A stretch of 64,000 nt of DNA, taken from assembly GCA_030390025.1 (NCBI GenBank), contig CM059432.1, forward strand, positions 47,308,001 through 47,372,000, given 5' to 3'. Positions 347 through 59,981 of this stretch are shown piece after piece (the stretch's first letter is position 1; every line of letters starts with the position of its first letter). The notes under the pieces are model-generated. The model ran no database searches. It worked only from the letters and a program-made list of their open reading frames with translations, and had not been told where the DNA came from. Both the position numbers and the translations under genes were made by a program. The DNA is from Squalus acanthias. Lineage: Eukaryota.

Positions 347-526
347 CTGCCCCAGAGTACATTCAAATTCTCCCAGGAAATCATCATCACCCAGATCAAA
401 AGTTTCATTATCAATATCATAAACTCCAAATTTCAGTTTCTGAACTTGCTCAAAGTAATAATCGATCAGAAATTTCTTCGAAAATTTTGGGTCGAGGCAG
501 TTTTTAACCATTTCTGTACGGCCAAT
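347..526 (-). CDS. CPNE3: Copine copy A, coding exon 2 (C2A domain, second half)
   Basis: tttcctag|ATT...CAG|gtaaat; 180 bp, phase 0/0. Encodes [60 protein letters not shown], closely resembling vertebrate copine-3, with Ca2+-binding Asp residues kept. CPNE3 versus CPNE1 orthology is unresolved. Confidence 0.95.
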
Positions 527-2820
527 CTAGGAAAGATAAAGGACAATGAACCTCCAATATAATAATCTCCTCAATTAGTACTTACTAAAACCAATCAGAA
601 TAAAGGAACCAAAATCCAACAGATAGAGATAATACAATGTAATGTTACAGAAATTCTAAACTGACTGTAATTTGTCACTCATGTTGTTTTCATCTATAAC
701 AAAATATTTAGGAAAGCAGCAGTCACTAAGTTTGGCCAATCTCAAACCAGTTCTTAGCAGGTATCAGTTTACAGCATGAACTACCTATCATTTGGGATTA
801 ACCGAGAGTCTCAGTCAAAGCTGTTGTAAAAATGATTACGGAGTGACTCCTGCCAACGACCGGAAGCTGCGCAGAAGCGTACTGCACATTAATCTGGAAC
901 CAGAAGCTTCTTTCTTTTTCCACAGAGCATTTTTCCCTCACACAAGAACATAAGACGTAGGAGCAGAAGGAGGTCATTTGGCCCCTCGAGCCTGCTCCGC
1001 CGTTCAATAAGATCATGGCTGATCTGATCTTGGCCTCAACTCCACTTCCCTGCCCGCTCCCCATAACCCTCGACTCCCTTATCGTTCATAAATCTGTCTA
1101 TCTCCACCTTAAATATATTCAATGACCCAGCCTCCACAGCTCTCTGGGGAAGAGAATTCCAAAGATTCACGATCCTCTGAGAGAAGAAATTCCTCCTCAT
1201 TTCCGTTTTAAATGGGTGCCCCCTTATTCTGAAATGATGCCCCTTGGTTCTAGATTCCCCCACGAGGGGAAACATCTTCTCTGCATCTACCCTGTCAAGC
1301 CCCTTCAGAATCTTATGTTTCAATAAGATCCCCTCTCATTCTTCTAAACTCCAATGAGTACAGGCCCAACCTCCTCAATCTTTCTTCATAAGACAACCCC
1401 TTCATCTCTGGAATCAACCTCGTGAACCTTCTCTGAACTGCCTCCAATGCAAGTATATCCTTCCTTAAATAAGGAGACCAAAACTGTACGCAGTACTCCA
1501 GGTGTGGTCTCACCAACGCCCTGTACAGTTGTAACAGGACTTCCCTGCTTTTATACACCATTCCCTTTGCAATAAAGGCCAACATTCCATTTGCCTTTCT
1601 AATTACTTGCTGTACCTGCATGCTAACTTTTTGTGATTCATGTACAAGGACCCCCAGATCCCTCTGTACCTCAGCATTTTGTAATCTCTCCCCATTTAAA
1701 TAATAATTTGCTTTTTTATTTTTCCTACCAAAGTGGATAACCTCACATTTTCCCACATTAAACTCCATCTGCCAGATTTTTGCCCACTCACTTAGCCTAT
1801 CTATATCCCTTTGGAGATTCCTTGCGTCCTCCACACAATTTGCTTTCCCACCTATCTTTGTATCAGCAGCAAATTTGGCTCCATTACACTCGGTCCCTTC
1901 ATCCAAGTCATTAATATAGATTGTAAATAGTTGAGGCCCCAGCACTGATCCCTGCGGCACCCCACTAGTTAGTTTGCCAACCTGAAAATGACCCATTTAT
2001 CCCGACTCTGTTTTCTGTTAGTTAGCCAATCCTCTATGCATGCTAATATATTATCCCAACCCCGTGAGCTCTTATCTTGTGAAGTAACCTTTTATGTGGC
2101 ACCTTATCGAATGCCTTCTGGAAATCCAAATACACGACATCTACTAGTTCTCCTTTATCCACCCTGCCTGTTACTGCCTCGAAGAACTCCAGCAAATTTG
2201 TCAAGCATGATTTCCCTTTCATAAAACCGTGCTGACTCTGCTTGACTGTATTATGATTTTCTAAATGTCCTGCTACCACTTCCTTAATGATGGACTCCAA
2301 CATTTTCCCAATGACAGATGTTAGGCTAACTGGTCGATAGTTGCCTGCTTTCTGTCTCCCTCCTTTCTTAAATAGGGGCGTTACATTTGCGGTTTTCCAG
2401 TCCGCTGGGACCTCTCCAGAATCCAGGGAATTTTGGTAGATTACAACCAATGCATCCACTATCTCTGCAGCCACCTCTTTTAAGACTCTAGGATGCAGGC
2501 CATCGGGTCCAGGGGATTTGTCCACCTTTAGTCCCATTAGTTTGCCTAGTACTTTTTCTCTAGTGAGTGATTGTTTTAAGTTCCCGCCCCACCCCCACCC
2601 CAATAGCCCCTTGATTATCCATTATTGGGATGCTTATAGTGTCTTCTACCGTGAAGACCGATACAAAATATTTGTTCAAAGTCTCTGCCATTTCCCTGTT
2701 TCCCATTATTAATTCCCCAGACTCATCCTCTAGGGGACCAAAGTTTACTTTAGCTACTCTCTTCCTTTTTATATACCTGTAGAAGCTCTTACTGTCTGTT
2801 TTTATATTTCTTGCTAGCTT

Positions 2821-4857
2821 ATCCTCTAGGCTAACAAGGGAAATTAGGGATAGCATAAGATCCAAGGAGAGGGCATATAAATTGGCCAGAAAAAGCGGTA
2901 ACCCTGAGGATTGGGAGCAGTTTAGGATTCAACAAAGGAGGACAAAGGGATTAATTAAGAAGGGGAAAATAGAATATGAAAGTAAGCTTGCAGGGAACAT
3001 AAAAACTGACTGTAAGAGCTTTTATAGATATGTGAAGAGAAAAAGATTAGTGAAATCAAGTGTAGGTCCCTTGCAGTCAGAAGCGGCGGAAGTTATAATG
3101 GGGAACAAAGAAATGGCAGCCCAATTAAATGCATATTTTGGTTCTGTCTTCACAAAGGAGAACACAAATAACCTTCCAGAGATGTTGGAGAACATACGGT
3201 CTGATGAAAGGGAGGAACTGACAGAAATCAGTATTTGCAGGGAAATGGTGTTAGGGAAATTGACGGGATTGAAGGCCGATAAATCCCCAGGGCCTGATAA
3301 TCTACATCCTAGGGTACTTAAGGAAGTGGCCCTAGAAATAGTAGATGCATTGCTGATCATCTTCCAACATTCGATGGAATCTGGAACTGTACCCATGGAT
3401 TGGAGGGTAGCTAATGTTACCCCACTATTCAAAAAGGGTGGTAGAGAGAAAGCGGGGAATTAGGTAAGCCTGACATCGGTAGTGGGGAAAATGCTAGAGT
3501 CCATTATAAAGGATGTAATAGCTGAGCACTTGAAAAACAGTGACAGGATCGGACAAATTCAACATGGATTTACAAAAGGTAAATCGTGCTTGACTAATCT
3601 ACTGGAATTTTTTGAGGATGTAACTGGGAAAATAGATAAGGGAGAACCAGTAGATGTGGTGTATTTGGACTTTCAAAAGGCTTTCGATAAGGTCCCGCAT
3701 AAGAGATTAGCGTGTAAATTTAAGGCACATGGGATTGGGGGCAAGGTATTGACTTGGATAGAGAACTGGTTGGCGGACAGAAAGCAGAGAGTAGGAATTA
3801 ATGGGACTTTTTCCGAGTGGCAAGCTGTGACTAGTGGGGTACCGCAGGGATCGGTCCTTGGACCCCAGCTATTCACAATATACATTAATGATCTAGATAA
3901 GGGAACTAAATGTAATATCTCCAAGTTTGCAGATGACACAAAGCTGGGTGGGAGTGTGTGCTGTGAGGAGGATACCGAGAAACTCCAGGATGATTTGGAC
4001 AGGTTGGGTGAGTGGGCAGAAGCGTGGCAGATGCAATATAACGTGGATAAATGCGAGGTTATCCACTTTGGTGTCAAAAACAGAAAGGCAGACTATTATC
4101 TGAATGGCAATAGATTGGGAGAAGGGGAAGTGCAACGAGACCTGGGTGTCCTTGTGCACCAATCGCTGAAGGTAAGCATGCAGGTGCAGCAGGCGGTGAA
4201 GAAGGCAAATGGTATGTTGGCCTTCATAGCGAAAGGGTTTGAGTATAGGAACAGGGATGTCCTGCTGCAGTTGTACAGGGCCTTGGTGAGACCACACCTT
4301 GAGTATTGTGTGCAGTTTTGGTCGCCTTATCTGAGGAAGGATGTTCTTGCCATGGAGGGAGTTCAGCGAAGATTCACAAGGCTGATACCTGGGATGGCAG
4401 GAATGACATATGAGGAGAGATTGGGTCGATTGGGCTTATACTCGCTGGAGTATAGAAGAATGAGAGGGGATCTCATCGAAACATATAAAATTCTGACAGG
4501 TCTGGACAAACTAGATGCAGGAAGAATGTTCCCGATGGTCGGAGAGTCCAGAACCAGGGGTCACAATCTAAGGATAAGGGGTAAGCCATTTAGGACAGAA
4601 ATGAGGAAGAATTTCTTCACCCAGAGAGTGGTGAACCTGTGGAATTCTCTACCACAGAAGGTAGTTGAGGCCAAGTCAATAAATATATTCAAGAATGAGT
4701 TAGATATATTTCTTAAAGCTAAAGGTATCAAGGGATATGGGGAGAAGGCAGGTACAGGGTACTGAGTTTGGATGATCAGCCATGATCTCATCGAATGGCG
4801 GAGCAGGCTCGAGGGGCCGAATGGCCTACTCCTGCTCCTATCTTCTATGTTTCTATG
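2821..4857 (+). mobile_element. 5'-truncated CR1 of a different subfamily, nested in opposite orientation inside the CR1 above
   Basis: 427-aa RT ORF 3482-4765 (QGSVLGP, FADD) and TTCTATGT-repeat tail. Removing it rejoins the host as ttgctagctt|tactctcata. Confidence 0.93.
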
Positions 4858-5285
4858 TACTCTCATAAGCTATCTTCTCTATCATTTTTTTAGTCGTCCT
4901 TTGCTGGTTTTTAAAAATTTCCCAATCCTCTGGCCTTCCACTATTCTTCGCAACATTGTATGCCTTTGTTTTCAATTTGATACCATTCTTTACTTCCTTA
5001 GTTTGCCACGGATGGTTCATCCTTCTCTTAGAGTCTATCTTTCTCACTGGAATATATCTTTGCTGAGAGTTATGAAATATCTCCTTAAATGTTTGCCACT
5101 GCTTTTCTACAGTCTTACCCTGTAATATATTTTCCCAGTCCACTTTAACCAAATCTGCCTTTATTTAAGTTCAGGACACTAGTTTGAGACCTAGCTTTCT
5201 CACCTTCAAACTGAATTTGAAATTCTACCATGTTATGATCACTCTTCCCAAGAGGATCCTTCACTTCAAGATCATTAGTTAATCC

Positions 5286-5484
5286 TGATGTGGAGATGCC
5301 GGTGTTGGACTGGGGTGGACAAATGTGAGAAGTCGCACAACACCAGGTTATAGTCCAACAGCTTTATTTGAAATCACAAGCTTTCGGAGCGCTGCTCCTT
5401 CACCTGACGAAGGAGCAGCGCTCCGAAAGCTTGTGATTTCAAATAAAGCTGTTGGACTTTAACCTGGTGTTGTGCGACTTCTCA
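5286..5484. mobile_element. Short palindromic non-autonomous element (Penelope-related) with hammerhead ribozyme
   Basis: 80-bp inverted repeat arms 5322-5401 and 5409-5488 (one mismatch), 7-nt loop. Flanked by ~13-bp direct repeats cattagttaatcc (5273-5285) and cattaattaatcc (5485-5497). Confidence 0.85.
5400..5436 (+). ncRNA. Minimal type I hammerhead ribozyme motif
   Basis: TCAC-CTGACGA-A-GGAGC-AGC-GCTCC-GAAA-GCTT-GTGA: both core boxes present, stem II GGAGC/GCTCC, palindromic stem III AAGCTT, stem I TCAC/GTGA. Confidence 0.75.
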
Positions 5485-7390
5485 CATTAATTAATCCAGC
5501 CTCATTACACATTACTAGATCTAAAATACTCTGCTCCCTGGTTGGTTCCACAACATATTGTTCCAAGAAACCATCCCATATACACTCTAAGAACTCTTCC
5601 TCAAGTCTACCTTTGCCAATTTGCTTTGTCCAATCAATATGAAGATTAAAATCTCCCATGATTATAGCCGTACCTTTCTTACAAGCCTGTAGTATTTCTT
5701 GATTTATACTCTGTCCTACAGTGGCTACTGTTTGCAGCCTGTCGACCACTCCCACCAGTGACTTCTTACTCTTATTATTTCTTATCTCCACCCAAACTGA
5801 TTCTACGTCTTGATCTTCTAAGCAAATATCATTTCTCACTACTGCACTGATCTCATCCCTTATTAACAGAGCTACACCACCTCCTTTTCCTTTCTGCCTA
5901 TCCTTACGAAATGGCAAATACCCCTGAATATTCAGTTCCCAGCTTTGGTCACCTTGCAACCACGTCTCTGTAATGGCAATCAGATCATACCCATTTATTT
6001 CTATTCATGCTGTCAACTTATCTACCTTGTTATGAATGCTGCGTGCGTTCAGATATAGAGCTTTTAATTTTGTCTTACCATTTTTCCCTACTCTGACCCT
6101 GCTTTCTGATGCACTCTTGTGTATACGCTCTGTCCCTTCCTGTCTCACTCTAGTGATCATTACCCCATCGCTACACTGCACTTTTGCCTTCTCATTTTTC
6201 TTTGACTTTTTAAATTTCCGCTCAGCGGACCTCTCCCCCCCCCACTATTTAGTTTAAAGCCCTATCTACAGCCCTAGTTATTCGATTCGCCAGGACACTG
6301 GTCCCAGCCTGGTTCGAATGAAGCCCTTCCCGATGTAACAGTTCCCTCTTACCCCAGTACTGGTGCCAGTGCCCCAAGAATCGAAACCCATTCCTCCCAC
6401 ACCAATCTTTGGGCCACTCGTTCATCTCTCTGATTTTATTTACCCTATGCCAATTTGCATGTGGCTCAGGTAGTAATCCAGAGATTATTACCTTTGTGGT
6501 TCTGCTTTTTAATTTAGCCCCTAGCTGCTCATACTCACTCAGCAGAACCTCTTTCTTTGTCCTACCTATGTCATTGGTACCTACATGGACCACGACAACT
6601 GGATCTTTCCCCTCCCACTCTAAGTTCCTCTCCAGCCCAGAGAAGATGTCCTTTACATTGGCACCGGGCAGGCAACACAGCCTTCGGGACTCACACTGTT
6701 GGCTGCAGAGAACAGTGTCTATCCCCCTAACTATACTGTCCCCTACCACTACCACATTTCTTTTTGCTCCCCCCACTTGAATGGCTCCCTGTACCACAGT
6801 GCTGTGGTCAGTTTGCTCATCCTCACTGCAGTCCCTGCTCTCACCCACACAGAGAGTAAGAACCTCGTAACTGTTGGGCAAGAGCAAGGCTGAGGCCCCT
6901 CCACCACTACCTCCTGGGTCCCCATACCTGCCTCGCTCGTAGTCACACCCACCGGTCCCTGACCACGGACCAAATTTGAATTAATTAATCTAAGGGGTGT
7001 GACTACCTCCTGGCACACAGCGTCCAGGTAACTCTCCCCCTCCCTGATGTGTCGCAGTGTTTGAAGCTCAGACTCCAGCTCATCAACACGGAGCCGAAGT
7101 TCCTCGAGCAACCAACACTTACTGCAAATGTGGTCGCCGTGGACCTCAATGGTGTCCACCAGCTCCCACATGTTGCAGCAGTAACACATCGCCTGCCCTG
7201 CCATCTCTAACGTATTTAATTAAGTGTTTAAGTTTTGAACGTTTAGTTTTTAATCCCGGCTCTTAATTTAAATCAATGCCCAAGAAAAAGAGAAATACTG
7301 ACCAACCAATCGCTTTCCTGTGACGTCGCACTTTGAATCTTTCTACTTCTTACCCTCCCAGGTCGGTTGGCGCTGCTCCGGGCTCGCTTG

Positions 7391-7539
7391 TTCAGCCCGC
7401 TCCCTCCCGCCATTTTTCCTCACAGCCCACTGACTCCCGGCATTTTTCCTCACAGCCCGCTCCCTCCCGCCGTTTTTCCTCACAGCCCGCTCCCTCCCGG
7501 CATTTTTCCTCACAGCCCACTCCCTCCCGGCATTTTTTT
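7391..7539. repeat. 30-bp minisatellite (~5 units) at the CR1 5' end
   Basis: Unit CATTTTTCCTCACAGCCCGCTCCCTCCCGG with minor variants. Confidence 0.95.
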
Positions 7540-7729
7540 TGATGAACCGGCAGCACGCATGCGCAGTTCGCTTCCGGTTCGTTGGCAGCAGTCACGTCCA
7601 AAATATTAATGTATACTGGTACAAGTGTGAAGTCACTCCACTAAAGCTCGAGTTGTGGCACTATTCTTTCAGTTGAATGGCATGAAAATGAGAATGTATG
7701 AAAATGAAGTTAAAAAAAAAAGCAATCTA

Positions 7730-8062
<333 letters not shown>

Positions 8063-41599: not shown

Positions 41600-44141
41600 G
41601 TAAGAGCGAATCTCAGTCAGATTACTGCCACCATATAAATCTCAAAATAGACAGTGATTGTATAATATAAACATGCTGGAGATAATTTACTATATAATAA
41701 ATTACATATTCCAAATGCAAGAGACATATTTATTTACACTCAGTCTATTTCCATGCTGATTGAAGGGAGCTATCTTTGAGCCACTCTTTCCAGAACTTTA
41801 GTTATTGAATCCGTTGAGCATTAACCTTTCATAAAGGATGCTTGGTATTTGTACTGGACTAACATTCTGGTTGAAATTTTAAAACCTGCATTAAAGAGGG
41901 TATGGATCTGTAGTTGGGACAGAGCCCTTTTCTGGTTTGGCATTTTCTAACTTCATAGCAACAGGGAACCATCCGAACTCCCTCAATACAGTGGTCAAGG
42001 GATACTGAAGTGTGACAGAACCTCAAACTCCTACCATTTCCCATCTCACCAATTAGACAGCTCAGTTACAATTAATATCCAAATGTAAATGTCAGCTGGG
42101 CTACAAATACAGCTCTTCTAGGCCATGGCACAACACATCAATACACTGCAACACCAGACTGCCAGACAACTAACACTCCCTATCTAAATAGTGTGTTGTG
42201 TGCATTGAATCACAACACACATATGTAACTAGTTATCATAAATATGTGATGTCAAATAGCCTTGACACTACGCTATTACCTTTTAAACAGTCATTTGCAG
42301 AAAAGTATAAAATAGTCACATTTTCTTTAATAATGATTCACTCAAACTAATTGGTGGTAAACTATTGTTCAATATCTCAACCCATTGCCACAGCAATGTC
42401 AAATTTATAGTTTTATTTTACCCAGGATGTTATTTCTGACAATTAGGTTTACAAGAAAAATAGTCACATGATAATTTTAGGCAGTCACTGATTCAATGTA
42501 TCTCAGCATGATGTGCATAAATAAAAAACATTTCAGACGACATGAACGCCACTTACAAGATACAAATGTGAATTTAACTGCAAGTCAATTATTTTAACAT
42601 TCTGCAGATATTGTAATTATGTAGCACAAATAGTATTTTCAGAATATGACTGAAAAACTAGTGAATGGTTTGTAGAAAGATGTCAATGCATGTGATTAAT
42701 TTGAAGCTAAAGGTCCAATGAACTACAAATGGTATCACATAAATTACAATATTAAGAAAAAAGTGCATAACTATAAACATAACACAAGTATACCATCAGA
42801 CCCAGAAGTGCCAGTAAATATTAAGTGACATACAGAAAGTAAATTACTTTATTTATACAAGTTCCCCAGCTTTTAAAGAACATACTCAATAATTAGAATT
42901 GCAACTTTTGCCCTCTCATTATTCAATATAAAAGCCATAATGTACTTTCTAAACTGCCTCAGATGTCTTTTATTGAAATATACTTGCTTAAATATAACTA
43001 CTTATTTTCAAGAAACTGCAGTGTACAGCAAAATGTCTTTTATATTTTATAATATTTTACACAGTACTAGCTGTATATATTTCAAAATCCTAAAATGTTT
43101 TCACCCGATGCTGTGGTGAATTTGGAAACAGGTATTTAACTGGGTATTTGGATTTTACATCAACAAGGATGCATAAAATGTTGTGGAAGATATATTTAAT
43201 TGAAAAGGTAAATACAAAAGATGACTTATTGACATGCTCAAGAACATTCCTTCCATATTTTGATGGTTTTTTTTAAATTCATGTTATAGTTTTGTAGTTA
43301 TCAGCTACTTATAAACTGCCAAAGTTCAAAGTTCACTACACCCCTTTATACAACAAAAAGTATGTTATAGAAAGGTATGTTTGTGTCATTCTATGAAGTA
43401 CACTCTATCTACAAGTTACTCTGGATTTATCATTTAGCGTTAAAAAAAAATCTTTATTCATCTATTTTTTAAAAAATGAACATTTTTGTGGTGCTAGAAT
43501 ATGAAAGCCCTAACCATTCAATTATTTAGCAGCAGCACCTACTTCATGTAAAAGTATTTGGCCCCAATCTAAAAATTCAAAGAAAATTGTACATTTCAAA
43601 CAGAACATTATAAAACAAACATTAAAAAATAAAATATCTGCAGAATAACTTCAAAATATGTTATACAATTAAAAAAAACTGCAATGCTGGAAATCTGAAA
43701 TAAAACCAGAAAGTACTGGAAATACACAGGAAGGCCCTCAGCATCTATAAAAAATAGACAGGTTTAACCTTTCATCAGAATGGAAAACTGAAAGGAAACA
43801 ATTTACAGGTTTGGGGAAAAAAGGAGAAAGGGCAGAAGAAGTAAGAGATACTCCAATCCTAGATAGTTAGTAAGTTGAATGATCTGTCTTTTCATTGGCT
43901 TACAAGATATAACAAATACATACAGAACAATTTAACCTGGTCAAATTTCATTATATTGTTTTATCAAAGTTATTCAAAATGTTAACATGGAAATGAATTT
44001 AAATTTTTAGAACATTTTTAACTAAAACAATACATCATAAAAATAAGTATAGTGGCTAATACTGGCAGGACTGAAGACTTCCGTACTCCAGTGAATATAT
44101 TTGTAGGTCACGCACTGAAGTCAGATCACACATTCAGATAC
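41600..44141 (-). other. Probable 3'UTR / 3' flank of copine copy B
   Basis: AT-rich, repeat-poor sequence after the stop codon, with several minus-strand AATAAA hexamers (e.g. ~43453, ~42848, ~42412). The true end is unknown. Confidence 0.5.
43679..43790 (-). mobile_element. Decayed Penelope 3'-terminal fragment within the putative 3'UTR
   Basis: The reverse complement matches 59570-59690 (CTGATGAA...gatgctg...tttccag...tatttcagatttccagcat). Confidence 0.65.
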
Positions 44142-44249
44142 TTAGGGGCTTGGCTCATTAGGAGGACGGAGTTTGCGTGTGTTGAAGTAGCACACCACCT
44201 GCTGAGGTAATTCAGCCAGTACACTTTGTGCAAGAACTTCTTTGGGTGC
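44142..44249 (-). CDS. CPNE3: Copine copy B, terminal coding exon
   Basis: taaacag|[38 protein letters not shown] followed by TAA; matches the copine-3 C-terminus. Confidence 0.95.
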
Positions 44250-44349
44250 CTGTTTAATGAGATGAGTGTTATTAGTTTGAAAAACAACAATCATGTGGAC
44301 AAGAAACAGCAAGTGACTGACATCACACAGCAAATTTTCAGTCTACACG

Positions 44350-44665
44350 ATCACAGAATCATGCAGCACAGAAGGAGGTCATTCAGCCCATCGTGCCTCT
44401 TTGAAAAAGAGCTATCCAATTAGTCCCACTCCCCAGCTCTTGCCACATAGCCTTGCAAATTTTTCCCCTTCAAGTATTTATTCAATTCCCTTTTGAAAGT
44501 TACTATTGAATCTGTTTGCAACATCCTTTCAGGCAGTGCATTCCAGATCATAACTTGCTGCATAAGAAAATTCTCATCTCCCCTCTGGTTCTTTTGCCAA
44601 TTACCTTAAATCTATGTCCTCTGGTTACCAACCCTCCTGCCAGTGGAAACAGTTTCTCCTTATTT
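44350..44665 (-). mobile_element. CR1 3'-end fragment in the last intron of copine B
   Basis: Homologous to 33010-33330. Confidence 0.75.
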
Positions 44666-46280
44666 ATATATTTGTGATGTTGCACACAGAAGTACCCCCA
44701 CCCCGCCACCCCCAGGCTCTTTTGCATTAAACTATATTAGTGACAATGGTGGGATTTTTCTGCTTCTCACTTGCCAGTCAGTGATTTTCCTCACTGATTA
44801 AACTGAATGGTCAGGAAATTGCATGCTGGTCTAGAAGCAGAAAACCCTAGCCAATGACTTTCAAAACCATATGGGCAGGCTGTACCCAACTATCTCGACA
44901 AGTTAGCTTCTCTCGCATTAAAATGAAATAGTTCTACCAAAATCAGTGCAGTACTAAAACCCTGGCTGGGACCTTCTTCCTTCCACTGCTTTTTAGGTGG
45001 AACTGCGGCAGACACAGGTGGAAAATGGGACAGAGACACACACTGCAGTTTTCACAACCATTAGATTTCCAGTTGGAAGTGACAGGTGATGCTCACTATA
45101 TCTGCCCATATATATGAATGCGCATATTGAAATGATAGTCAAATGATGAAAATACATCAACCAATGTACTTTCCGTCACTTGGCCCACAGCAATGCTGGA
45201 AGCCAGGGATGGTTGTTAGCACTGGCTATGGCAGCAGAAGGGGGAACTTTAACTTTTAAAATCCAGAAAGCCTGTGTAATTGCCCGATTCAAAAATGTTA
45301 AAAGTCTTATCAGCAGACTGCCGCAAACAAAACTTTGCTCTTAGTACTGGCAGACTCCTTGGTGGAGGCCAGAGTGCCTTCCAAAATTATTTCAATAACC
45401 ATGGCCACAAGATTAGCTGTGGTCAGGGAATATCTTTTTGGAAAGCAGGAGCAACACCATGTCAAATCCACAAAAGCGAAGACCTGGGCCATAATGTTCT
45501 ACTTCTCTAAAAGGAAACTTGTTTCGATGCCAAAGATTTGCTGCAGTTGTTCAGCAGGTTTTCTGGTATTCAATTTTATGCAGATTTTGCAGCCTCATAC
45601 TAGATGTCAGTGTTGTGAACTTCTAACTTACACATTTTGGTGCAATCATCTTATTATACCAGTAATACCATTTTTAAGGGACTATTTTAAGGTGCCACAA
45701 AGTAAACTATGAGACTAATCACACTGTTGGTATAATCATTTCCACTGAAATTTGGCAAAAATTTAAAAACACACGAACAATGACATGTTCAAAAACAATC
45801 CCTTTACCAGCTGTATTCAACTCATGACTCAAACTTCAGTACATGTATCTATATAATTGTGACACACAGTCACATTATCCATGAAGTGGGTTTTCTTTAA
45901 AAAACATTATTTAACACTAGAGCTAGCTAAAATACTTACCCATTATATTAACAGGCATGTGCAAATGGATCAACCAGATGCAACACACTTGCAATTTTGC
46001 TGCTTGCACCTTATGCCATAGCATCTACATCTTGTAAATATTATAGAGATGATTCTATGATCTGGTTCTTTCAGGAGGCGCATCTCTAGAAATCCCAGTT
46101 GCGCAGTGAGAGATTTTCTTAATTCATTCATTTTCAGTTTTACCAGGCATACTTAAAGACCTCCATGAATGTGACTTGTATGTCAGATTTTACAATATTT
46201 CATACATTTGTCTAATACAATACTTTGTTATTTCAAGCCTGTGAAGTAGGATTCAAAACTATTATTACTGGGCAGTGTTA

Positions 46281-46595
<315 letters not shown>

Positions 46596-46999
46596 TCAAG
46601 ATCAAACAAAGCATAGCTTCTCAATAGATAGTTTAATTAAAGATCGTGAAACAATTGAATTATGACTATTTCTTCTAACAATTACCACATATGTTGAAAT
46701 TAATTTTACTATGTATGCTGAGCCTTGCATTCCACCTCATTTTATTTAAATGCAGATTTCACGAGTAAAACATGCTAACAAGTTCTCTAGGTGTCCAAAT
46801 TTTAAAGCAAAAGTAAAGCAGTTTTACACATAACTAGTAAAATTTAAAAATATATAACTCATATACTGGATTAAAATATTAACCACTCCGTGATTTCGGC
46901 AGTGTTTGAGATTTGTAAAAAAAAAAAAAAATCTTTTTGACACAATTACATACTCGAGGTCAGTATTCAGGGCTCACTCGGGAAATACACTTCCTAATG

Positions 47000-47355
47000 T
47001 GGAACATAGCCATACAGACCGAGAAGGTTTGAAGTTCAATCATGGTCTGCGTTGAGTTTGCTGATCTCAGCTGATATGGTGGAAAAGATGCTACAATTAT
47101 CCTTCAAGAAGTGGGGGGAAAAAGCAGACTCATGCTCCTGATCATTAACTCCTGCTGAAAAACGTGCAGGCAGGGACAGAATCAGACTTGGCCGTCATTT
47201 GTGTCTCTTCACCCCCTCTCCCCCCCCCCAAAATAGCTTCATGATATTCATTATCTAGGCTCACAAAATGAATAGAGAAGAATGAGGTACTGAGGCTGCC
47301 CAGTGTTCATGAAACTACACCCCAGCAAGAAGCCATGTCTTCAGCAAAAGAGAAA
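47000..47355 (+). mobile_element. AmnSINE2-like SINE
   Basis: gttcaatcatggtctgcgttgagtttgctgatctcagc ... aggctcac...accccagcaag; related copy at 53510-53885. Family name from recall. Confidence 0.5.
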
Positions 47356-47618
47356 AAATATTTATTCAGGATTCTTTCCTCTCTCAAAATACTAATAATG
47401 TGATTGTGGAATATCAATTACTTTGTCATTGTCCTAAACATTTAAACCTTGGATATCAATGATCTTTGAGATTCTAAATATTATATGAAGTGTTACTATT
47501 TTCTCCCCATTCCAGTTTTGAGCACATAATTCCTCATCGAGACAGTGGGGTACGTGATCCGCTTCCTAGCATCTGTCAAAGCTGCTCTATCACCACCTGC
47601 TCAGAGATATAGGAGTTA

Positions 47619-47798
<180 letters not shown>

Positions 47799-48419
47799 TC
47801 AGTAATAAAATGTTAATAAATGAATTTATTAAAACCCCATTTGGTGCCACTCTAATTTCAGTCTCAAGTTCTGCAAGACTTAAGAGAGTGCCCTGACTGT
47901 ATTTTTCTTACCATGAGGGAACCATTACGAAGTGGTAGTTATTTAAGCAATCACAAAATAGACTAAACACATCACATGCTCAGAACTTTCATGAACTCAA
48001 TGCTTCTACTTATAACGGTGAGTTATGGGCAATTAAAATGGAGTACAATAATTTTTTTTTTTTAAGTAGACCGCAAATTGTAAACTATAACTCACGAGAA
48101 CTTGATTATGCATAAATAAATGGCAGAAGTTTCAAAGTGGTTGCTACTCAGGATCATGAGTTACAATACAGCACTGGTGTGCATTCCACTTATAACAGTG
48201 CTGCTTTCCAGAAGAGTTTCTGCTTCACAAGAGCATACGCACATGCCATGTATTTTCATTCAGGGAATGTGATTTTAAAAAGTTAAATTTTAAAAAGTTA
48301 AATGCTTCTCAAGAAACAACAAAGAGAGAGATGAGGCGGCAGAGATCTTGCTTGCCTCCCATATGTTTTCAGAATATTTTTGCCCGATAAACCACATGCT
48401 TTAAGGTTAAAGTGCCAAG

Positions 48420-48835
48420 TGTCAGCTCGGCTCATTTCTTAGCACCGGAGTCAAATGGTTGTGGGTCTTAACCACATTTCACAACTTCAGCCCAGAAGCT
48501 AGGCTGACACTTCCAAAGTTCTGTCTAATCGGATGAGATGTTAAACTGAGGTCCTGTTTTCCTGTTTACATGTATGTGAAAGGTCCTGTTGCATTTTTCA
48601 AGAGGAGCATTTAGTTTTCCCCAGTATCCTGGCAAACATTTTCCCCTCAACCAACACCACAAAAACAAGATTAACCAGTCATTCATCTCATTTACTTTGA
48701 CCTTGCTGTGATTAAATTGGCTGCAGTGTTTTCTACCATAATAGTGACTGCACTTCAAAAGCAACTCATTTAATGTGCAGTGCTTGCAGATGTCCTGAGG
48801 AAATGACAGAAGGGTCAATATAAATGCAAGACCAT
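48420..48835 (+). mobile_element. Degraded Deu-domain SINE
   Basis: tRNA head remnant and Deu core (tcggatgagatgttaaactgagg). Confidence 0.7.
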
Positions 48836-49329
48836 TCTTTCTAAAAATGGTTTCAATTTTAAAAGCACCAATTGAGAGAATGGCATAGAGGAACTAAAAC
48901 ATTTAAAATTTAAAGTCGGCATCATATGAAGAGAGATATAGGATATGATCAGACTGACATTTTTAACATGAATGTCTTGATCATAACATTTTGCAATCTG
49001 TAAAGATCTAGAGGCAGTGGACAAATAATTCATCAAACTGTAAACAAACAGGAATACTTTGATACTGAATCAAATTCAGACACTACCAAGACATGCCATT
49101 TGGTTGGTCCATCAATGTGATTAGAACAACTTGTCTCTCCCTATTATACATGATCATTCCAACTCACTTACACTGAGCCACCTATTTAACACAAGACAGC
49201 TGAACAATGAAAGGAGTGAGTCAGACCACCAGAAGTTCTTTGGGCAGAACCAAGACAACAGGATTTGGGGACATAATTAGAAGCTTAAGTCACTTTGAAC
49301 TAAAATGGAACTTTAGCAGCAACCGGAGT

Positions 49330-52030
49330 CCCGACGGCTGTGTTGAGGACATCTCCTCATGGCTGGAGAAGAACTTGGAGCAGGAGGGGGAGGATCCAGT
49401 TGTTGTGGTCCCACATAGGAACCAAGGAACCAACGACATAGGTAGAATTAGGAATGAGGTTCTGCTGAGGGAGTTTGAGGAGCAAGGGTACAAATTAAAA
49501 AGCAGAACCTTAAAAAGGTAATAATCTCTGGTTTATTACCTGAGCCACGTGCAAATTGGCATTGGGACAAACAGATTAGAGGTTTAAATGCGTGGCTGAA
49601 ATAGGCAGGGGTTTCAATTCAAGGGGCACTGGCACTAGTACCGGGGAAAGAGGGAGTTGTTCCGTTGGGACGGGCTAGGACCAGTGTCCTGGCGAATCGA
49701 ATAACTAGAGCAGTAGATAGGGCTTTAAACTAATAAGGGGGAGGGGAGGTTCAGGTAACAGTAAATTTAAAAGTCTAAAGAGAAAAGTCAAGGCTGTAGA
49801 GCAGAGTAGCGATTTGGGTAAAATCATACAGATTGTGTCAGGAAGGGGCAGAGTTTTTAACAAAGGTAATAGGGCATTAGCAGCTAAGGCCACATCAGGG
49901 GGAAAAGATAGTAAAAAGTTAAATTTAAAGGCGCTATATTTGAATGCACAAAGCATTCGTGATACAATAGATGAATTAATGGCATAAATAGAGATAAATG
50001 GGTTTGATCTAGTAGTCATTACCTAGATGTGGTTGCAGGGTAACCAAGGTTGGGAACTAAATTTCCAGGGTACTTGACTTTTAGAAAAGACAGGCAAAAT
50101 GGAAAGGAGGTGGGGTGGCCCTAATAATAAAGGAGATAAAGGCAGTAGTGAAAAAAGATCTTCGCCCAGAAAATCAGGATGTAAAATCAGTATGGGTTGA
50201 GCCAAGAAATAACAAAGGGCATAAAACACTAGTGGGAGTAGTTTATAGGCCCCCTAACAGTAATCATAGTGTTGAACAGAGTATAAATCAGAAAATTAGA
50301 GGAGCACGTAACAAAGGTAATGCAATAATCATGGGGGACTTTAATCTTCATATAGGCTGGGCAAACCAAATTGGCAAAAGTAGCTTGGAGGATGAGTTCA
50401 TGGAATGCATTCAAGACAATTTTCTAGAACAGTATGTCGAGGAACCAACTAGGGAACAGTCTATTTTAGATCACATATTGTGTACTGAGACAAGGTTAAT
50501 TAGTAATCTTATCGTAAAGGATCCTCTGGGGAAGAGTGATCGTAATAGGATAGTATTTCATATTAAGTTTGAGTGATGTGGTTAAGTCCGAAACTAGGGT
50601 CTTAAATTTAAAAAAAGCCAATTACGAAGGTATGAGGGGGTGAGTTGGCTAAGGTAGATTGGGAAATTAAATTAAAAGATATGATGGTAGATAAACAATG
50701 GCAAACATTTAAAGAAATAATTCATAATTCTCAACGAATATATATTCTCTTGAGAAATAAAAACTCCACTGGAAAAGTGGCAAAACCATGGCTAACTAGA
50801 AGTTAAGGATAGTATTCGATTAAAAGAGGCTTACAATGTTGCCAAAAACAGAGTAAGCCTGAGGATTGGGAGGGTTTCAAAAATCACTTGGAAAATCACA
50901 ATACGATTAGGCAGAGTCAATGCGATTTTATGAAAGGGAAATCGTGTTTGACAAATCTATTAGAGTTTTTGAGGATGTAACTAGCAAGGTAGATAAGGGG
51001 GAACCAGTGGATGTAGTATATTTGGATTTTCAGAAGACATTCAATAAGGTGCCACACAAGAGGCTGTTACACAAGATTAGAGCTCAAGGGATTTGGGGTA
51101 ATATACTGTATTAGCATGGATTGAGGATTGGATAACGGACAGAAAACAGCAAGAATAAACGGGTAATTTTCGGGATGGCAGCGTGTAATTAGTGGAGTGC
51201 CACAATGATCAGTGCTTGGGCCTCAGCTATTTACAATCTATATCAATGACTTGGTAGGAAGAATGGAAAAGCAGAATTTAAAAAATGAGAGACTAGTAAA
51301 TGTTGGTATTTAGAGGAATTTGGGTGTCCTTGTACATGAAACACAGAAAGTTAACATGCAGATACAGCAAGCAATTAGAAAGGCAAATGGTCTGTTCGCC
51401 TTTATTGCAAGTGGGTTGCAGTATAAGAGTAAGGAAGTCTTGCTGCAATTATATAGGGCTTTGGTAAGATCAAAACTGGAATACTGTGTACAATTTTGGT
51501 CTCCTTACCCAAGGAAGGCTATACTTGCCTTAGAGGGGGTGCAACGTTGGTTCACTAGATTGATTCCTGGGATGAGAGGACTATCCTATGAGGAGAGATC
51601 GAGTAGAATGGGCCTATATTCTCTGGAGTTTAGAAGAATGAGAGGCTATCTCATTGAAATATATAAAATTCTTAAGAGGGGTTGACAGGGTAGATTCTGA
51701 GAGGCTGTTTCCTCTGGCTGGATAGTCCAGAACTGGGGGGGGGGGGGGCATAATCTCAGAATAAGGGGTCGGCCATTTAGGACTGAGATGAGGAGAAATT
51801 TCTTCACTCAGGAGGGTTGTGAATCTTTGGAATTCTCTACCCCAGAGGGCTGTGGATGCTCAGTCGATGAGTATATTCAAGGCTGAGATAGATAGATTTT
51901 TGGACTCTAGGGGAATCAAGGGATATGGGGATCGGGCAGGAAAGTGGAGTTGATGTAGAAGTTCAGCCATGATCTTATTGGGTCGAGGGGTAGTATGGCC
52001 TACTTCTGCTCCTATTTCTTATGTTCTTGT
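49330..52030 (+). mobile_element. CR1 with internal deletions (esterase, APE, RT and 3' tail)
   Basis: GTNDIG, IIMGDFN, VYLDFQK and [10 protein letters not shown] motifs in order. Confidence 0.9.
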
Positions 52031-53509
52031 GTACTTGATGAGAGGACAGACATTGCTTTTTCAATATTCCCATCTTCAGACTGGGAGCATCAGAACTCCA
52101 CTGCTCTTTACCTCTCATTCCACCGAACAATATGGAAACGCAGATAAGGGAAAGCCCTGATATTTCAATTTTTTTCTTTGTGGCTACCCATGGTACTCTA
52201 TATTCCTGTGTTGATAGTTAGGATTGAGTAACACCATGGATTAGCAAACTGTATTTCACTGCTGGGCTTTAGGTTTGAAACCGCCTTGAATAGTACTCTC
52301 ACCTGTAAGATAGAAGATCTTAGGTTCATCTCGACTCCAGAAACTAGTACTTAATCCATTGACATAAAAATCCTTTACCATTAATAAGATATATCCAAGG
52401 AACCATGTTTAGTAAAAGGTCAGTGAATGTTGGGGACAATATACTATATAGATACTAAGAAGATTGATCATTTCAGAAGTTAAATGAGCTGAGATCAGCA
52501 AGAACAACGAATCATCGCCTATCACATTAGTTCTTCGACAGCACCTCCCAAACTCACGACCTGTACCGCCTAGAAGGACAAGGGCAGCAGGCGCATGGAA
52601 ACACCATCACCTCCAAATTCAGCTCCAAGTCACACACCATTCTGACTTGGAAGCATATCGCCATTCCTTCATCGTCACTGGGACAAAATCCTGGAACCCC
52701 CTACCTAACAGCACTGTGGGAGTACCATCACCAAACGGATCGCAGTGGTTTCAAGACAGCAGCTCACCACCACCTTCTCAAGGGCAATTAGGGGTGGGCA
52801 ATAAATGCTGGCCTTGCCAACAACACCCACATCCCATGAATGAATAAAAAAAAGTCTGCATTTTGTGCTCATTGTTCTTCTACTCGCCGCATTTTTGTCA
52901 GCATCAAACTTTTCCAGCTCAGGTATAACATAGCCAAGTGCAGAATAAAGCTCACTTTGATGTCTCAGACTTCACGGTCACCTTCAAATCAGGAGGTTGT
53001 GGCTTCAAACTCCTCTCCAGGACTTGACCCAGATTACGTTCAAGTCCATGGAGGGTGGAGGAAGGGACGCCGTCCGCCCAAGCTTTAATTAGGTAATTAG
53101 TGGGCTAGCACCAAAAAAAAATCAAACTTTAATACCTTCCGTTCTCCATAATCCAAGAAGTTGAGCCTATTGATCGGGACAGCCAAGAGGTCTGACATAA
53201 TTGGGTATTTGAAGAAAATTATGAACTACTTTTTTCATCCCATTACAACATTTTTTAAAATACATCACATGCAATGGATTAAAATGAAACACAGCAACGT
53301 TTTCAGCTCTCAGATTGAAACAGATGTTCAAAATTACACAAATTGCTTTTTATTTTAGACTTCAAGGCAAAAAACTGAGTATTGTTGAGCATGTTGCCTG
53401 AGCGACTGCTGGAACATTTTGTTTTCTATTTTAGGATTTGAAGCGAGCTCCCATTATCTCCGTCCCCTTCCAAACCCTATCCACAATGTCACAGTGGGAA
53501 AAGCCACTG

Positions 53510-53885
53510 AATAGTGTGATACTGAGCAACATAGATTATGAAGGTTTCAGGTTTGATCCTTGGTTTGTGCTGAATAGTGGATCTCAGCCAAGGTGGTAGT
53601 GGAGGTATAATCCATGTCCTGGGCTGGGCTAGCCTGCTGGTAAATTAACTAGGGTCCTAGCTCCTGACAGCTATCAAGTGACCGTCAATCCCCAGAAAGT
53701 GTCCATCCAATGGCAGTGGGTAGCAACTGGAACAGGTTCAGCCATAATGCCTCTCAGTTGGAACATTCTGTCAACACATACGTGGGCTCATACCTGAAGT
53801 GAGGTGCTGAAGAGCTAAGAGCATCAGTGGTGCCATACCTTAGCATTAGTCATCAAAGCCAGGAGTGGAGAGTTAAGAGGAAAAA
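53510..53885 (+). mobile_element. AmnSINE2-like SINE (degraded)
   Basis: Homologous to 47000-47355. Confidence 0.45.
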
Positions 53886-54407
53886 ATTGTTGTGCTACAT
53901 TTGGAAAGGTATTTTTAAAGCATTAGTAATAGGCATAAGGATCATGCTATTGGTTGCTGTGAGAAGAGACAAGAAAATCAGGTTAGATTAGTTCTGTGAG
54001 GGTTGGGTACCTCAAATGCAGGAGATAACCTCCAAGTTACACGCCATCCTGACCTGGAAGTATATCGCCTTTGCTTCATCGTCACTGGGTCAAAATCTTG
54101 GAACTCCCTTCCTAACAGTATGGAATACCTGCACCACACAGACTGCAGCAGTTCAAGAAGGCAGTTCACCACCACCTTCTCAAGGGCATTTAGAGATGGG
54201 CAATAAGTGCTGGCCTTGCCAGCGACACCCACATCCCACGAATGAATTAAAAAAAGTAATCAATTATTTTGATGGCATATGACAACAAAGTAATGTCACA
54301 TGGACAGTCCCACATCTTACTTGGAATCTCATCATTGCTTTAACCACATTGTAATAACTTTTTAAATGGGGAGAAAGAAGGGGACAAAGTAAATATATGT
54401 TCCATAC

Positions 54408-54459
54408 CTCCACAAAATGGGTTTTCAGGGTTGAAGTTAAGTGGAAACTCGTGTGATAC
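54408..54459 (-). CDS. CPNE3: Copine copy B exon (vWA domain)
   Basis: ttcctgtag|GTA...GGAG|gtatgg; 52 bp. VSHEFPLNFNPENPFCG. Confidence 0.95.
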
Positions 54460-54545
54460 CTACAGGAAAAATGCCACTACATAGTATGACTTGTATATAA
54501 AAATATGATTTTTGAATATCTTTTGTACAAATGATCTATATATAC

Positions 54546-54600
54546 CTGCCAGGTAGGGGGTATTTGTGCACCAAATCCAAATGCTGGGAATAATTTGTCT
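54546..54600 (-). CDS. CPNE3: Copine copy B exon (vWA domain)
   Basis: ttttacag|A...CAG|gtatat; 55 bp, phase 2/0. DKLFPAFGFGAQIPPTWQ; separated from the next exon by an 86-bp intron. Confidence 0.95.
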
Positions 54601-54989
54601 CTGTAAAAGATACAATCATAATTAGATGTCTGCCTATAAATCACTGGAGAAAGAATGCATGAGCGAGGATAAGTCATTCGAGTAGCGACATATAATAAAT
54701 ATCTCCACAAGTTAGAAACCAGATAACCAAATTGTGGTACACAAATTATTGCATATACTAATCTTACTTCATTGCTGCTCCAAACATATTTTAATTATAC
54801 AACACTTCACAACAGTTTCATTATATTCAGAGCTATTAGGAGGGAAGAAGCCACTTCAATAACAACCCTCTCAAAAGATAACTGGTCATCTTGAAAATCC
54901 CCTTTACAATAATTAATTACTAAATGTACATGGTTGACTGAAACCTAAATACAATCTATGTCAGCTAACTGTTCAACTGAAGCTAATCC

Positions 54990-57520
54990 ATAGAATATAC
55001 ACAACACAGAAACAGGCCATTCAGCCCAACTAGTTTGTGCTGCTGTTTATACTGCATGAGTCTACTCCCATTCCATCGACTTCATCTCAGCCTTTCAGCA
55101 TATCTTTTGTTCGCTTTTCTCTCCTATACTGGTCTAGTTTCCTTTTGAAAGCATCTGAGCTATTTGCCTCAACCACTTCCTGTGGTAGTGAGTTCCACTT
55201 TCTAACCACTCTCTGAATAAAGAAATTTCTCCTTATATCCCTATTGGATTTATTAGTAACTATCTTGTATTTATGGCCCTTAGTTTTGGATTCTCCCACA
55301 AGTGGCAACATTCTCTCCACATCTACCCGGTCCAACCCACTCAATTTTAAAGGCCTCTATCAGGTCACCTCTAAGTCATCTCTTTTCTAAAGAAAAAAGT
55401 CCCAACTTGTTCAATCTTTCTCCGATAGCTGTAATCTCTCAGTTCTGGTTCCATCCTTATAAATCTTTATTGCACATTCTCCAGTGCCTCTATGTCCCTT
55501 TTATAGTATAGAGACCAGAACTGTGCACAGTACTTTTAAGTGCAACCTGACCAGGGTCCTATACAAGTTTAACATAACTTCACCACTTTTGAATTCTATG
55601 GGGGAAAAATTCAGTCGCGCCCCATTTGGGGCGCAAATATCATCCGGGCGCAAAAATTAGCGCCTGGCGCTAATTATCGCCACTGACTGGAAACTTCACT
55701 TTTAACGCCCCGGGAGGTGAGTGGAGCGCTAAATCAGGCGCTGCACACCTGTCTTAAGGCGCAAAGGCCGAGGAGTGAGGCGCTAACTCAGAGCGCTGGC
55801 GAAGCTCATGTAATGTCAGTCAGCAATGGAACACACACACAATGGCACGGGCCAGTTCTTAAAGGGGATGGTTAATCTTGCTTTCCATCCACATCCTACT
55901 CATTGCAGCCTTGAATCTCGGCCTGGAGAGACTTGCACATCAAATGTGCTGGAAAGAACAATGGAGAGTACCAGGCAAAGAGCTCAGAGTGCAGCCCCCA
56001 CAGTCTCTGCTAAATCAATACAAGGAATGGAAAATCAAAATGAACCTGCAAAGTGCTGCTCAGTACCCAAAACTCCTTCATACAACATTGAATCTCTCCA
56101 GAAGTCTCTCCCTCTCTCTCTCAGAATGCGCAGTTCAAAAATGGCACCAACAATAAAAGGCAGGAAGCGGTCACCTTTAAATAGCACTCCCCCTTTCCCT
56201 TCATGACTGCAGAACGCTCCCCTCAACCTGTCGTTGCTAGCGTCAGGCGGTAAGGCAGGGGGCGCCACTCAATATCCGCTCCGGGGCGATACCGGGGCGT
56301 TGCACACTCGAGTGACGTCATGATCTGCCGGCGCAGGAGATCGTGGCGGTAGTGTTTAGCGCCGCCGCAAAATGTCTAGTTAATTTCGCGAGCGGCGCAA
56401 ACTTCGCCGTGCCCGGGCGCTAGATGCTTTGCGCCCCATTAGCGCCCTTTTAAGGCGCTAACGGGAGGCGCAACCAACTGAATTTTTCCCCCTATATCCC
56501 TAGAAATAAATCCCAGTGCTTGGTTAGCAGTTTTAATTGCTTTGCTGACCTGCAATGCTGCTTTTAATGATTTGTTCATCTAGATCTCTTTGCTCTTCTA
56601 CCCCATTCAGTTTCTTATTTTCTAAGGTGCAGGTGAGGTTTCTATTTTTCCTACCAAAGAGCATCACCTCACATTTATCTGTTAAAGTTCATTTGCCACT
56701 TAACTGCCCAGTCTGCAAGTTTTCTAATTGTCTTCTTGTATTATGTTGCATTCCTCCTCAGTGTTAGCTATACCCCTAATTTGGTATCATCTGCAAATTT
56801 TGATAGAGTTACTTGTTCCCAAATCCAAATCATTAATCTAAATTAGGAATAACAGTGGTCCCAGCACTGATCCTTGTGCGACACCGCTTTCTACCTTCCT
56901 CCAATCTGAATAACTAGCTTTTACCCCAACTCTCTGCTTTCTATTTTTTAGCCAATTTGCTATCCATTCACCTATTTGTCCCGACTCCACATGCCCTAAC
57001 CTTTGTCATGAACCGACCATGTGGTACCTTATCGAAGGCCTTTTGAAAATCCAAGTATATGACATCTACTGCATTATCTTGGTCTACTCTTTCAGTTATC
57101 TCTTCAAAAAATTCTATCACCTACCCTTTCGGAATGCATGCTGACTATTTATTATATTTTCTGTCTCTAGATGCTGTTCCATTACTTCTTTTAGTATCTT
57201 TCCTATCACTGATGTTAAGCTGACTGGTCTATAGTTCCATCTACCTTTTCATATATTAGGAACAATATTAGCTGTCCTCTGGCACTATCCCCTCTTCTAT
57301 GGAATGTGTGGGCATACATACATATTATATACACGAATATGCGCATTCAATTTTCTTTTAGTTCTTTATTCATCCACAGTGCTTCATAATTAATTAGAGT
57401 GCTGGTTTTTGATTTTTAGTGGAATACATCTCTCTTGAACTCTATTGATTACCCTTTTCAAGATTTCCCACTGTTTTTCTGTCTTTTTGTTTTTCAAGAT
57501 TTTCTCCCAGTTTACTCCAA
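54990..57520 (-). mobile_element. Degraded CR1 fragment hosting a MITE
   Basis: RT-region remnants (ORF 55087-55344; VYLDFQKAFDKVPH-coding near 57030-57065). Confidence 0.8.
55600..56492. mobile_element. 893-bp PIF/Harbinger-type MITE
   Basis: Perfect 16-bp TIRs GGGGGAAAAATTCAGT and 3-bp TSD TAT (55597-55599 and 56493-56495). CpG-rich arms with repeated GCGCTAA motifs. Confidence 0.85.
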
Positions 57521-57524
57521 TTAT

Positions 57525-57805
57525 ATAGAGTCTTGGCAAGACCACACCTGGAATACTGTGTACAGTTTTGGTCTCCTTACCCAAGGAAGGATATACTTGC
57601 CTTAGAGGGAGTGCAACGTAGGTTTACTAGACTGATTCCTGGGATGAGGGGATTGTCCCATGAGGAGAGATTGAGTAGACTAGGCCTATATTCTCTAGAC
57701 TTTAGAAGAATGAGAGGTGATCTCATTGAAACATATAAAATTCTTAAGGGACTTGACAGGGTAGATACTGGGAAGATGTTTCCCCTGGCTGGGGAGTCTA
57801 GAACT
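57525..57805 (+). mobile_element. CR1 RT C-terminal fragment fused to Penelope
   Basis: [13 protein letters not shown]...GESRT, ending abruptly at 57805. Confidence 0.85.
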
Positions 57806-59699: not shown

Positions 59700-59783
59700 A
59701 TTATAATTTTCTATGGTAGTTTTGAGGAGAAACTTCATAAAATGGAACTGTAAATTGACAAAAAAAATTAAAGGAATGCATTA

Positions 59784-59981
<198 letters not shown>

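Follow-up and report, generated by a model that had tools for sequence, protein, structure and literature searches.

Penelope-like elements (PLEs) typically carry an inverted, 5′-truncated copy at their 5′ end and a tail of 30–40 bp at one end only (PMC8557442, Fig. 2 legend; PMC3846280); features of the PLE cycle have been described as still undefined (PMC8557442), and the regeneration of the pseudo-LTR (pLTR) as having no obvious mechanism (PMC2377424). In vitro, both target strands are cut and extended by the Poseidon element PAc of Anolis carolinensis, with reverse transcription starting at two sites that bound the tail; its targets are AT-rich and its hammerhead mutants insert normally (PMC11167929). 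According to the available sections of this report by Frangieh et al., which concerns a Poseidon and not a Neptune element, the start sites were used without difference between the strands, and inverted stubs are not treated there (PMC11167929). The minimal hammerhead ribozymes (HHR) of metazoan PLEs are pLTR-borne, occur in thousands per genome and show low activity in vitro; opposite-strand pairs 100–700 bp apart have been ascribed to truncated PLEs (PMC4209133). Animal non-LTR retrozymes consist of direct tandem repeats of 150–450 bp with canonical type I hammerheads and are expressed as circles (PMC7229834).

The insert described here lies in a window of 64,000 nt of Squalus acanthias DNA, the whole stretch that was analysed and to which all positions refer. 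It comprises 199 bp plus a 13-bp target site duplication (TSD; Table 1) and consists of two copies, placed head to head, of the 5′ leader found in an autonomous Neptune-type PLE, likely left as a dead-end product of that element's insertion. The inverted, tailed layout has already been published, and the stub is thus known in kind: as in endonuclease-containing (EN+) PLEs including Adineta Pen2a, there is a head-to-head pLTR, a one-sided tail, a TSD of about 9–13 bp, a pLTR-borne HHR and, in the parent element, a C-terminal GIY-YIG domain. In contrast to the EN+ insertions in the available published descriptions, nothing but the leader is left of either half, and stubs are far more numerous than whole copies. 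The likeness to PAc, as far as described, comprises the two tail-bounding start sites, the cutting and extension of both strands, the AT-rich targets and the dispensable HHR; unlike PAc, whose ORF starts at HHR stem II (PMC11167929), the parent has its ATG behind the tail and possesses the CX4CxxC linker of the Neptune/Nematis type.

Table 1. Features of the insert and its host repeat in the window (positions of the window; strand given where it applies).
Feature	Position	Strand	Remarks
Left TSD copy, 13 bp	5273..5285		G at 5278 is a later change
Penelope tail, 36 nt	5286..5321	-	minus-strand reading ends at the A of the parent start codon
Tailed arm (parent leader)	5322..5401	-	5′-truncated inside the HHR core: starts at G8, without CUGAC
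CTTC, 4-nt microhomology of both arms at the inversion junction	5398..5401		window sequence compared with parent
Tail-less arm (parent leader)	5398..5488	+	covers the leader from 6 nt upstream of the HHR core up to the internal end before the tail; single change at 5459
Minimal type I hammerhead motif	5400..5436	+	predicted cut after 5432 (CUU)
Right TSD copy	5485..5497		its first 4 nt agree with the arm end as well
Host CR1-type LINE fragment, endonuclease region	4905..6652	-	self-BLAST to 49346-50886, Pfam Exo_endo_phos

An inverted-repeat search returned two arms of 80 nt each (5322–5401 and 5409–5488) that are 99% complementary and separated by a 7-nt loop; the insert fold was calculated at −165.3 kcal/mol (z −24.1), a value equalled by 0 of 200 shuffles. 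The hairpin, the 13-bp duplication and the parts of a Penelope-type minimal HHR were thus found where the preliminary description had placed them, while its head of 35 nt had to be corrected to 36 nt. The direct repeats are identical in 12 of 13 positions. Since paralogous CR1 sites without the insert skip exactly 212 bases (199+13; contigs of four runs) and read A at position 5278 where the left TSD copy has G, the repeats are regarded as a true target duplication with one later change; these empty sites are other CR1 copies and do not prove an empty allele at the locus of the insert. The final 4 nt of the right arm (CATT) are common to the arm end and the duplication. With one change between the arms and one in the TSD, the insertion is young, as had been proposed before. 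The flanks of the insert align with the CR1 paralogue given in Table 1, itself without the insert, and it is the frame adjoining the insert that gave the Pfam match. CR1 fragment and insert together sit in an intron of a minus-strand copine gene, with exons near 7930–8060 and 347–526.

According to the copies recovered from the genome, the parent element is arranged in the order pLTR – hammerhead – arm – tail – ATG – RT/GIY-YIG frame of about 890 codons – pLTR. The comparison with the leader of L234, which is complete and belongs to the same subfamily as the insert (inverted tailed pLTR, pLTR, ORF and tail-less pLTR; frame of 891 codons with two internal stops), gave 116/116 identical positions for the left arm plus head, ending on the A of the ATG, and 88/89 for the right arm. 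L234, L230 and L235 have partial-tandem pLTRs plus an inverted 5′-truncated copy, and the window arms correspond to the inverted pair. The walk upstream from core matches led to a GIY-YIG-type C-terminus (L043) and inverted RT pieces (L053), then to long frames matching RVT_1. Among 29 loci fetched by the N-terminal part of the ORF, the whole leader unit stands directly before the ATG in 10 and part of it in 5 more; three of these ORF loci are open for 768 codons, to the locus end, and the core-to-ATG distance was 120–121 nt in all five that were read.

The parent frames are matched by Pfam RVT_1 (E 3.7e-9 to 3.2e-5), and DKG, CX4CxxC and GIY-YIG/CCHH-type motifs were recognised by eye in the translations. 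Because Pfam recognised neither the GIY-YIG piece (P0001) nor the frames of a second PLE in the window (see below), the call of the parent nuclease rests on motifs read by eye; a PDB sequence search with a 782-aa parent frame returned 0 matches at E≤1. The CX4CxxC linker is a defined feature of the Neptune/Nematis type (PMC8557442), and its presence, combined with the vertebrate host, suggests the assignment to Neptune. The PLE features that were looked for were all found, i.e. a frame of RT and C-terminal GIY-YIG, an inverted truncated pLTR, a tail, a minimal HHR and a variable TSD; indeed, the earlier attribution of the insert to a Penelope RT/GIY-YIG enzyme agrees with arms that are the leader of an element coding for both. 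The 5′ part of the parent is present in 24 sequencing runs, in every case as contigs; for nearly all of these runs, an RNA source is a guess. Contigs of four runs cover leader and ORF, a kind of data that cannot show start, strand, level or circles; one contig contained one joint going back 121 nt, without evidence of a circle. As the runs (X1–X24) come from nine organisms, in five of which half or more of the words of the 5′ part occurred, the family is common to related species.

The ends of the arms were read in a positional sample (the first 100 core matches on contig C1, giving 88 fetched loci, of which 83 were used after dropping 5 duplicates), with position 0 denoting the first base of the HHR core; the sample was selected by an intact core, so that later starts in that arm are hidden. 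The 3′ ends of 129 arms at these 83 loci formed two groups, +79 to +91 (66 arms) and +116 to +138 (61 arms), with 2 between, and these groups agree with the pair of tail-bounding sites at which RT starts in vitro (PMC11167929). All two-armed loci (46/46) combine a tailed arm with a tail-less one (the others comprise 33 one-armed loci, 3 without an arm read and 1 four-armed locus), and the same pairing was found in other sets, between which a few loci overlap (20/20, 28/28 and 43/44). The variant at +44 is the same in both arms of 37 of 42 pairs (20.7 expected) and, consequently, the arms derive mostly from one source element; since loop II is discordant in 10 of 28 pairs, at times through changes of the kind that distinguish subfamilies, they were not always copied from the same RNA stretch. 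The sequence does not distinguish the 5′ from the 3′ leader copy as the source of a stub.

Copy number and TSDs had been named in the preliminary description as points to be checked genome-wide, and the survey yielded 17,043 cores together with TSDs of 12–13 bp in 47 and of 8–15 bp in 66 of 74 insertions. The ATT of the TSDs in window-like copies is not general, because only 26 of the 64 TSDs from the positional sample had ATT, TTA, AAT or TAA within their first 5 nt. The same 12-bp TSD was shared by independent insertions within CR1-end-like repeats in two groups of loci (L018, L022, L124, L141 and L158; L047, L151 and L276), which suggests preferred insertion sites in the LINE; the window copy is likewise located in a CR1.

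At their 5′ ends, 64 of 99 core-bearing arms start at most 10 nt before the core. The commonest start is −7 (18 arms), and in 13 of these arms it is preceded by a G in place of the parental C. The −7 base lies in a TCACTT context, 30 nt downstream of the first base of a TATATAT box; a TCACTT context was also described for rotifer pLTRs (PMC3846280). Genome-wide, 2,759 arms have a non-C at −8, with G in 65 of the first 100 listed (by eye). Among 62 non-C junctions that were read, G was found in 36, T in 15 and A in 11, 8 of the T being a parent variant; the binomial p of 1e-5 for G (36/54) ignores hot-spot junctions and drops these 8 parent-T-variant arms. The extra G is also readable from the partner arm in 17 of 25 junctions without inserted bases. 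At junctions without an inverted partner it was present in only 6 of 17 (5 of the 17 being the parent T variant), single inserted bases were G in 1 of 2, and host-joined ends are not clearly G-rich. An untemplated G is a known mark of a copied cap in L1 (PMC9341517, PMC4859970). We infer from the junction sequences that the pile-up at −7 may correspond to the capped RNA 5′ end and the extra G to the copied cap; the internal, TATA-less promoter of Drosophila virilis Penelope (PMC2377424) counts against a run-off start.

The hairpin most likely arises in DNA at insertion, since the parent RNA holds the leader in one orientation only. In the proposed course of events, the GIY-YIG nuclease would nick both target strands about 12–13 nt apart, and each nick would prime RT inside the leader, one at the tail end and the other about 36–40 nt upstream at the pre-tail site. 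Both cDNAs would grow inwards to the capped RNA 5′ end, about 7 nt before the HHR core, and would stop at or near it; their ends would then anneal by a few bases and be repaired to a DNA palindrome, so that the hairpin would never be needed as template RNA. In the window, the top-strand cDNA would have ended at G8 of the core and joined its counterpart at CTTC. A more far-reaching reading is put forward tentatively, with confidence somewhat short of even: the stubs would be strong-stop products of Penelope, with one protein dimer priming both nicks, one tail-bounding site used per strand and both cDNAs running off the capped end; a jump of the cDNA to the 3′ part of the RNA would give the pseudo-LTR, and failure of this jump the hairpin join. 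If true, tail, inverted copy and pLTR would all follow a single rule, which could be read from over ten thousand junctions in the genome. The stubs may record how Penelope elements insert, and what the one-tail rule and the 5′ pile-up predict is testable in the existing in vitro system. The stubs resemble L1 twin priming in that the inversion is attributed to priming at both nicks and in the extra G at full-length 5′ ends (PMC4859970, PMC9341517); whereas priming by L1 takes place on poly(A) and at internal sites that vary, the stubs have two fixed sites near the RNA 5′ end and are tiny for this reason. Neither the run-off model nor this family was found in the titles and abstract openings of a literature made up largely of open-access papers.

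The one-tail rule and the shared +44 variants are also explained by fold-back self-priming. Here, a single cDNA (or an antisense template) would fold onto itself at the small CTTC/GAAG palindrome and be elongated, with nuclease resolution leaving the one-sided tail. Such a palindrome is present at the window junction; palindromes at inverted junctions of rotifer Penelope were read as self-priming by Arkhipova et al. (PMC3846280), and the one-sided tail was ascribed to endonuclease resolution by Craig et al. (PMC8557442). However, each arm often contains sequence that the other lacks (the tail-less arm of the window has 11 more 5′ bases), the discordant loop II in 10 of 28 pairs, some with subfamily-type changes, would not be given by one folded cDNA, and several junctions are blunt or carry inserted bases. 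Fold-back is therefore considered unlikely, and the joining of two separately primed cDNAs is the preferred reading.

The clustering of 5′ ends within about 15 nt around the core (80 of 129 between −11 and +7) would also be expected if it reflected RT stalling at the folded ribozyme, or ribozyme cleavage, instead of a transcript start. For stalling, the main peak is misplaced, as it is upstream of the complete fold, at a point that RT reaches only after traversing it. Cleavage gains some support from arm starts at the predicted cut (+29), which outnumber those at +31 by 559 to 352 pattern matches and by 21/30 to 12/30 true ends judged by eye (26/30 and 16/30 as classed by script); this excess of about 2–3 times depends on one control position and is confounded by stem I, which itself gives microhomology there. 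In contrast to the 2,759 matches of the main peak, roughly 390 fall at +29, about a seventh of the −7 class, and HHR mutants left the insertion products unchanged in vitro (PMC11167929). Altogether, stalling or cleavage is quite improbable as the origin of the pile-up, and a transcript start at −7 is retained as the preferred reading.

In the 3.7 Gb genome, the 17,043 matches of the 30-nt HHR core pattern stand against 0 for the reversed control, and the core together with the 14 nt upstream of it in the parent has 5,916 matches. Exact tail-to-ORF junctions of the window's subfamily number 112, several of the 25 inspected being short derivatives; stubs thus far outnumber whole copies. The preliminary description proposed a retrozyme-like element without protein; on this reading, a retrozyme- or SINE-like mini-element would be transcribed, cut by its HHR and moved on, all 199 nt in one piece, by a Penelope enzyme. 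A search with the whole insert gave 1,421 first-look candidates, of which 40 were scored and found 93–100% identical; the window's exact inversion junction occurs in 548 copies, its loop is common to 18 of the 30 best matches in a set chosen by likeness, short tandem leader repeats exist at some loci, and non-autonomous PLE derivatives are known (PMC8557442). The 548 copies, however, make up only about 3% of the core matches and lie at a microhomology hot spot, and the 40 scored matches were likewise chosen by likeness. In the positional sample, the inversion junction varies from locus to locus, and the lengths from head to arm end in 74 insertions (positional sample plus 40 further loci) form a continuum of 146–1,081 bp that grades on up to full-length copies.

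The stub is, like retrozymes, small and non-coding and has a type I hammerhead (PMC7229834). Unlike them, it is a single inverted pair with a minimal HHR, taken from the leader of a coding element: in place of direct tandem repeats with at least two same-strand HHRs there is one core in an inverted arrangement without tandem repeat; in place of a canonical HHR with helix III and loop 1–2 contacts there is a minimal motif without canonical helix III or Rfam HHR match; and in place of a fixed monomer independent of a coding element, junctions and lengths vary. A TATA-like box is missing from the stub, and its transcript would be locked in an 80-bp duplex according to the predicted fold. The mini-element thus appears highly improbable, and the retrozyme-like interpretation was abandoned in favour of the leader copies described above. 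A MITE of a DNA transposon, with the palindrome as terminal inverted repeats, would likewise be short, non-coding, palindromic and of high copy number, and is refuted to the point of being practically excluded by the match of the arms to the leader of an RT-coding element, by an inverted repeat that is not terminal (36-nt tail on one side) and by TSDs that are variable and mostly 12–13 bp.

The HHR motif of the window consists of stem I (5400–5403/5433–5436), CUGACGA (5404–5410), an extra A (5411), stem II (5412–5424) and GAAA (5425–5428). It corresponds to the minimal HHRs of PMC4209133 in the 4-bp stem I, the extra base before stem II, the G10.1–C11.1 pair and the palindromic 15.2–16.2; in contrast to the schistosome motifs described there, stem II has 5 bp instead of 7–8; this subfamily has U at position 17. 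Both HHR boxes were intact in 73 of 89 arms that had been retrieved by sequence other than the core. Position 7 is free (C55 T11 G5 A2), and common changes in stem II keep the pairing. As the boxes are mostly intact and the pairs kept, this sequence pattern suggests a ribozyme under selection in the parent lineage, where it probably serves RNA processing; in the stub, the hammerhead would be a passenger that is not needed to explain it.

Stems I and II form with probabilities of 0.87–1.0 in the predicted fold of the 41-nt motif alone, whereas the predicted ensemble of the whole insert gives them ≤0.001, as does that of the right arm by itself; within that arm, the HHR fold is thus predicted to be outcompeted already. 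Dimer co-folding did not return an active hammerhead dimer. The covariance-model search proposed earlier found no Rfam match at gathering score in the whole window, and at E≤10 it returned 13 rows, all below the cut-off and none a hammerhead; the best rows were microRNA-precursor hairpins, and a microRNA precursor was rejected. The conformational switch that had been suggested is unnecessary, as the hairpin most likely arises in DNA and the HHR is predicted to be outcompeted within the right arm; a riboswitch role was rejected likewise. The copine transcript reads the minus strand of the insert, on which no CUGANGA core occurs. Judged from its sequence, the copine pre-mRNA would carry the 80-bp duplex, as foreseen in the preliminary description, but no catalytic core, and cleavage of this pre-mRNA was rejected. 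Intronic 80-bp duplexes could serve as editing or siRNA substrates. The stub is otherwise ordinary, one of thousands of truncated Penelope insertions, located in a LINE inside an intron; it is probably inert, and to list it among new ribozyme elements or riboswitches would be wrong. What gives such stubs value is the statistics over their many copies.

Several further observations were made in the genome and the window. The loci L045 and L046 (C1:3.967 and 3.984 Mb) have identical insertions and flanks 17 kb apart and, together with the inverted duplicate in L060, represent local duplications made after insertion. The whole-length copies L230 and L238 contain about 1.1–1.3 kb of extra sequence inside the ORF, possibly secondary insertions. 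Six of 25 tail-to-ORF loci (L205, L207, L208, L218, L222 and L227) contain a further leader copy whose −7 region is fused to the ORF start about 70–80 nt after the ATG, at nearly the same spot in each; this gives 200-nt tandems, with an extra G at the join in three, and a third start site or a template jump is possible. The window contains two tandem minus-strand copine genes (44120–59910 and 347–8060) that run past both window ends, i.e. the 3′ half of one gene and the first exons of the next; one exon of the neighbouring paralogue was matched by Pfam Copine (E 3e-35), and a GC-rich short tandem repeat with units of about 30 nt lies near the first copine exon (7393–7537). The second, distant PLE is located at 57802–59700 (+) with 26–32% identity to the parent protein; it has its own minimal hammerhead at 59570, and a short inverted relative of its end is found at 43653–43774.
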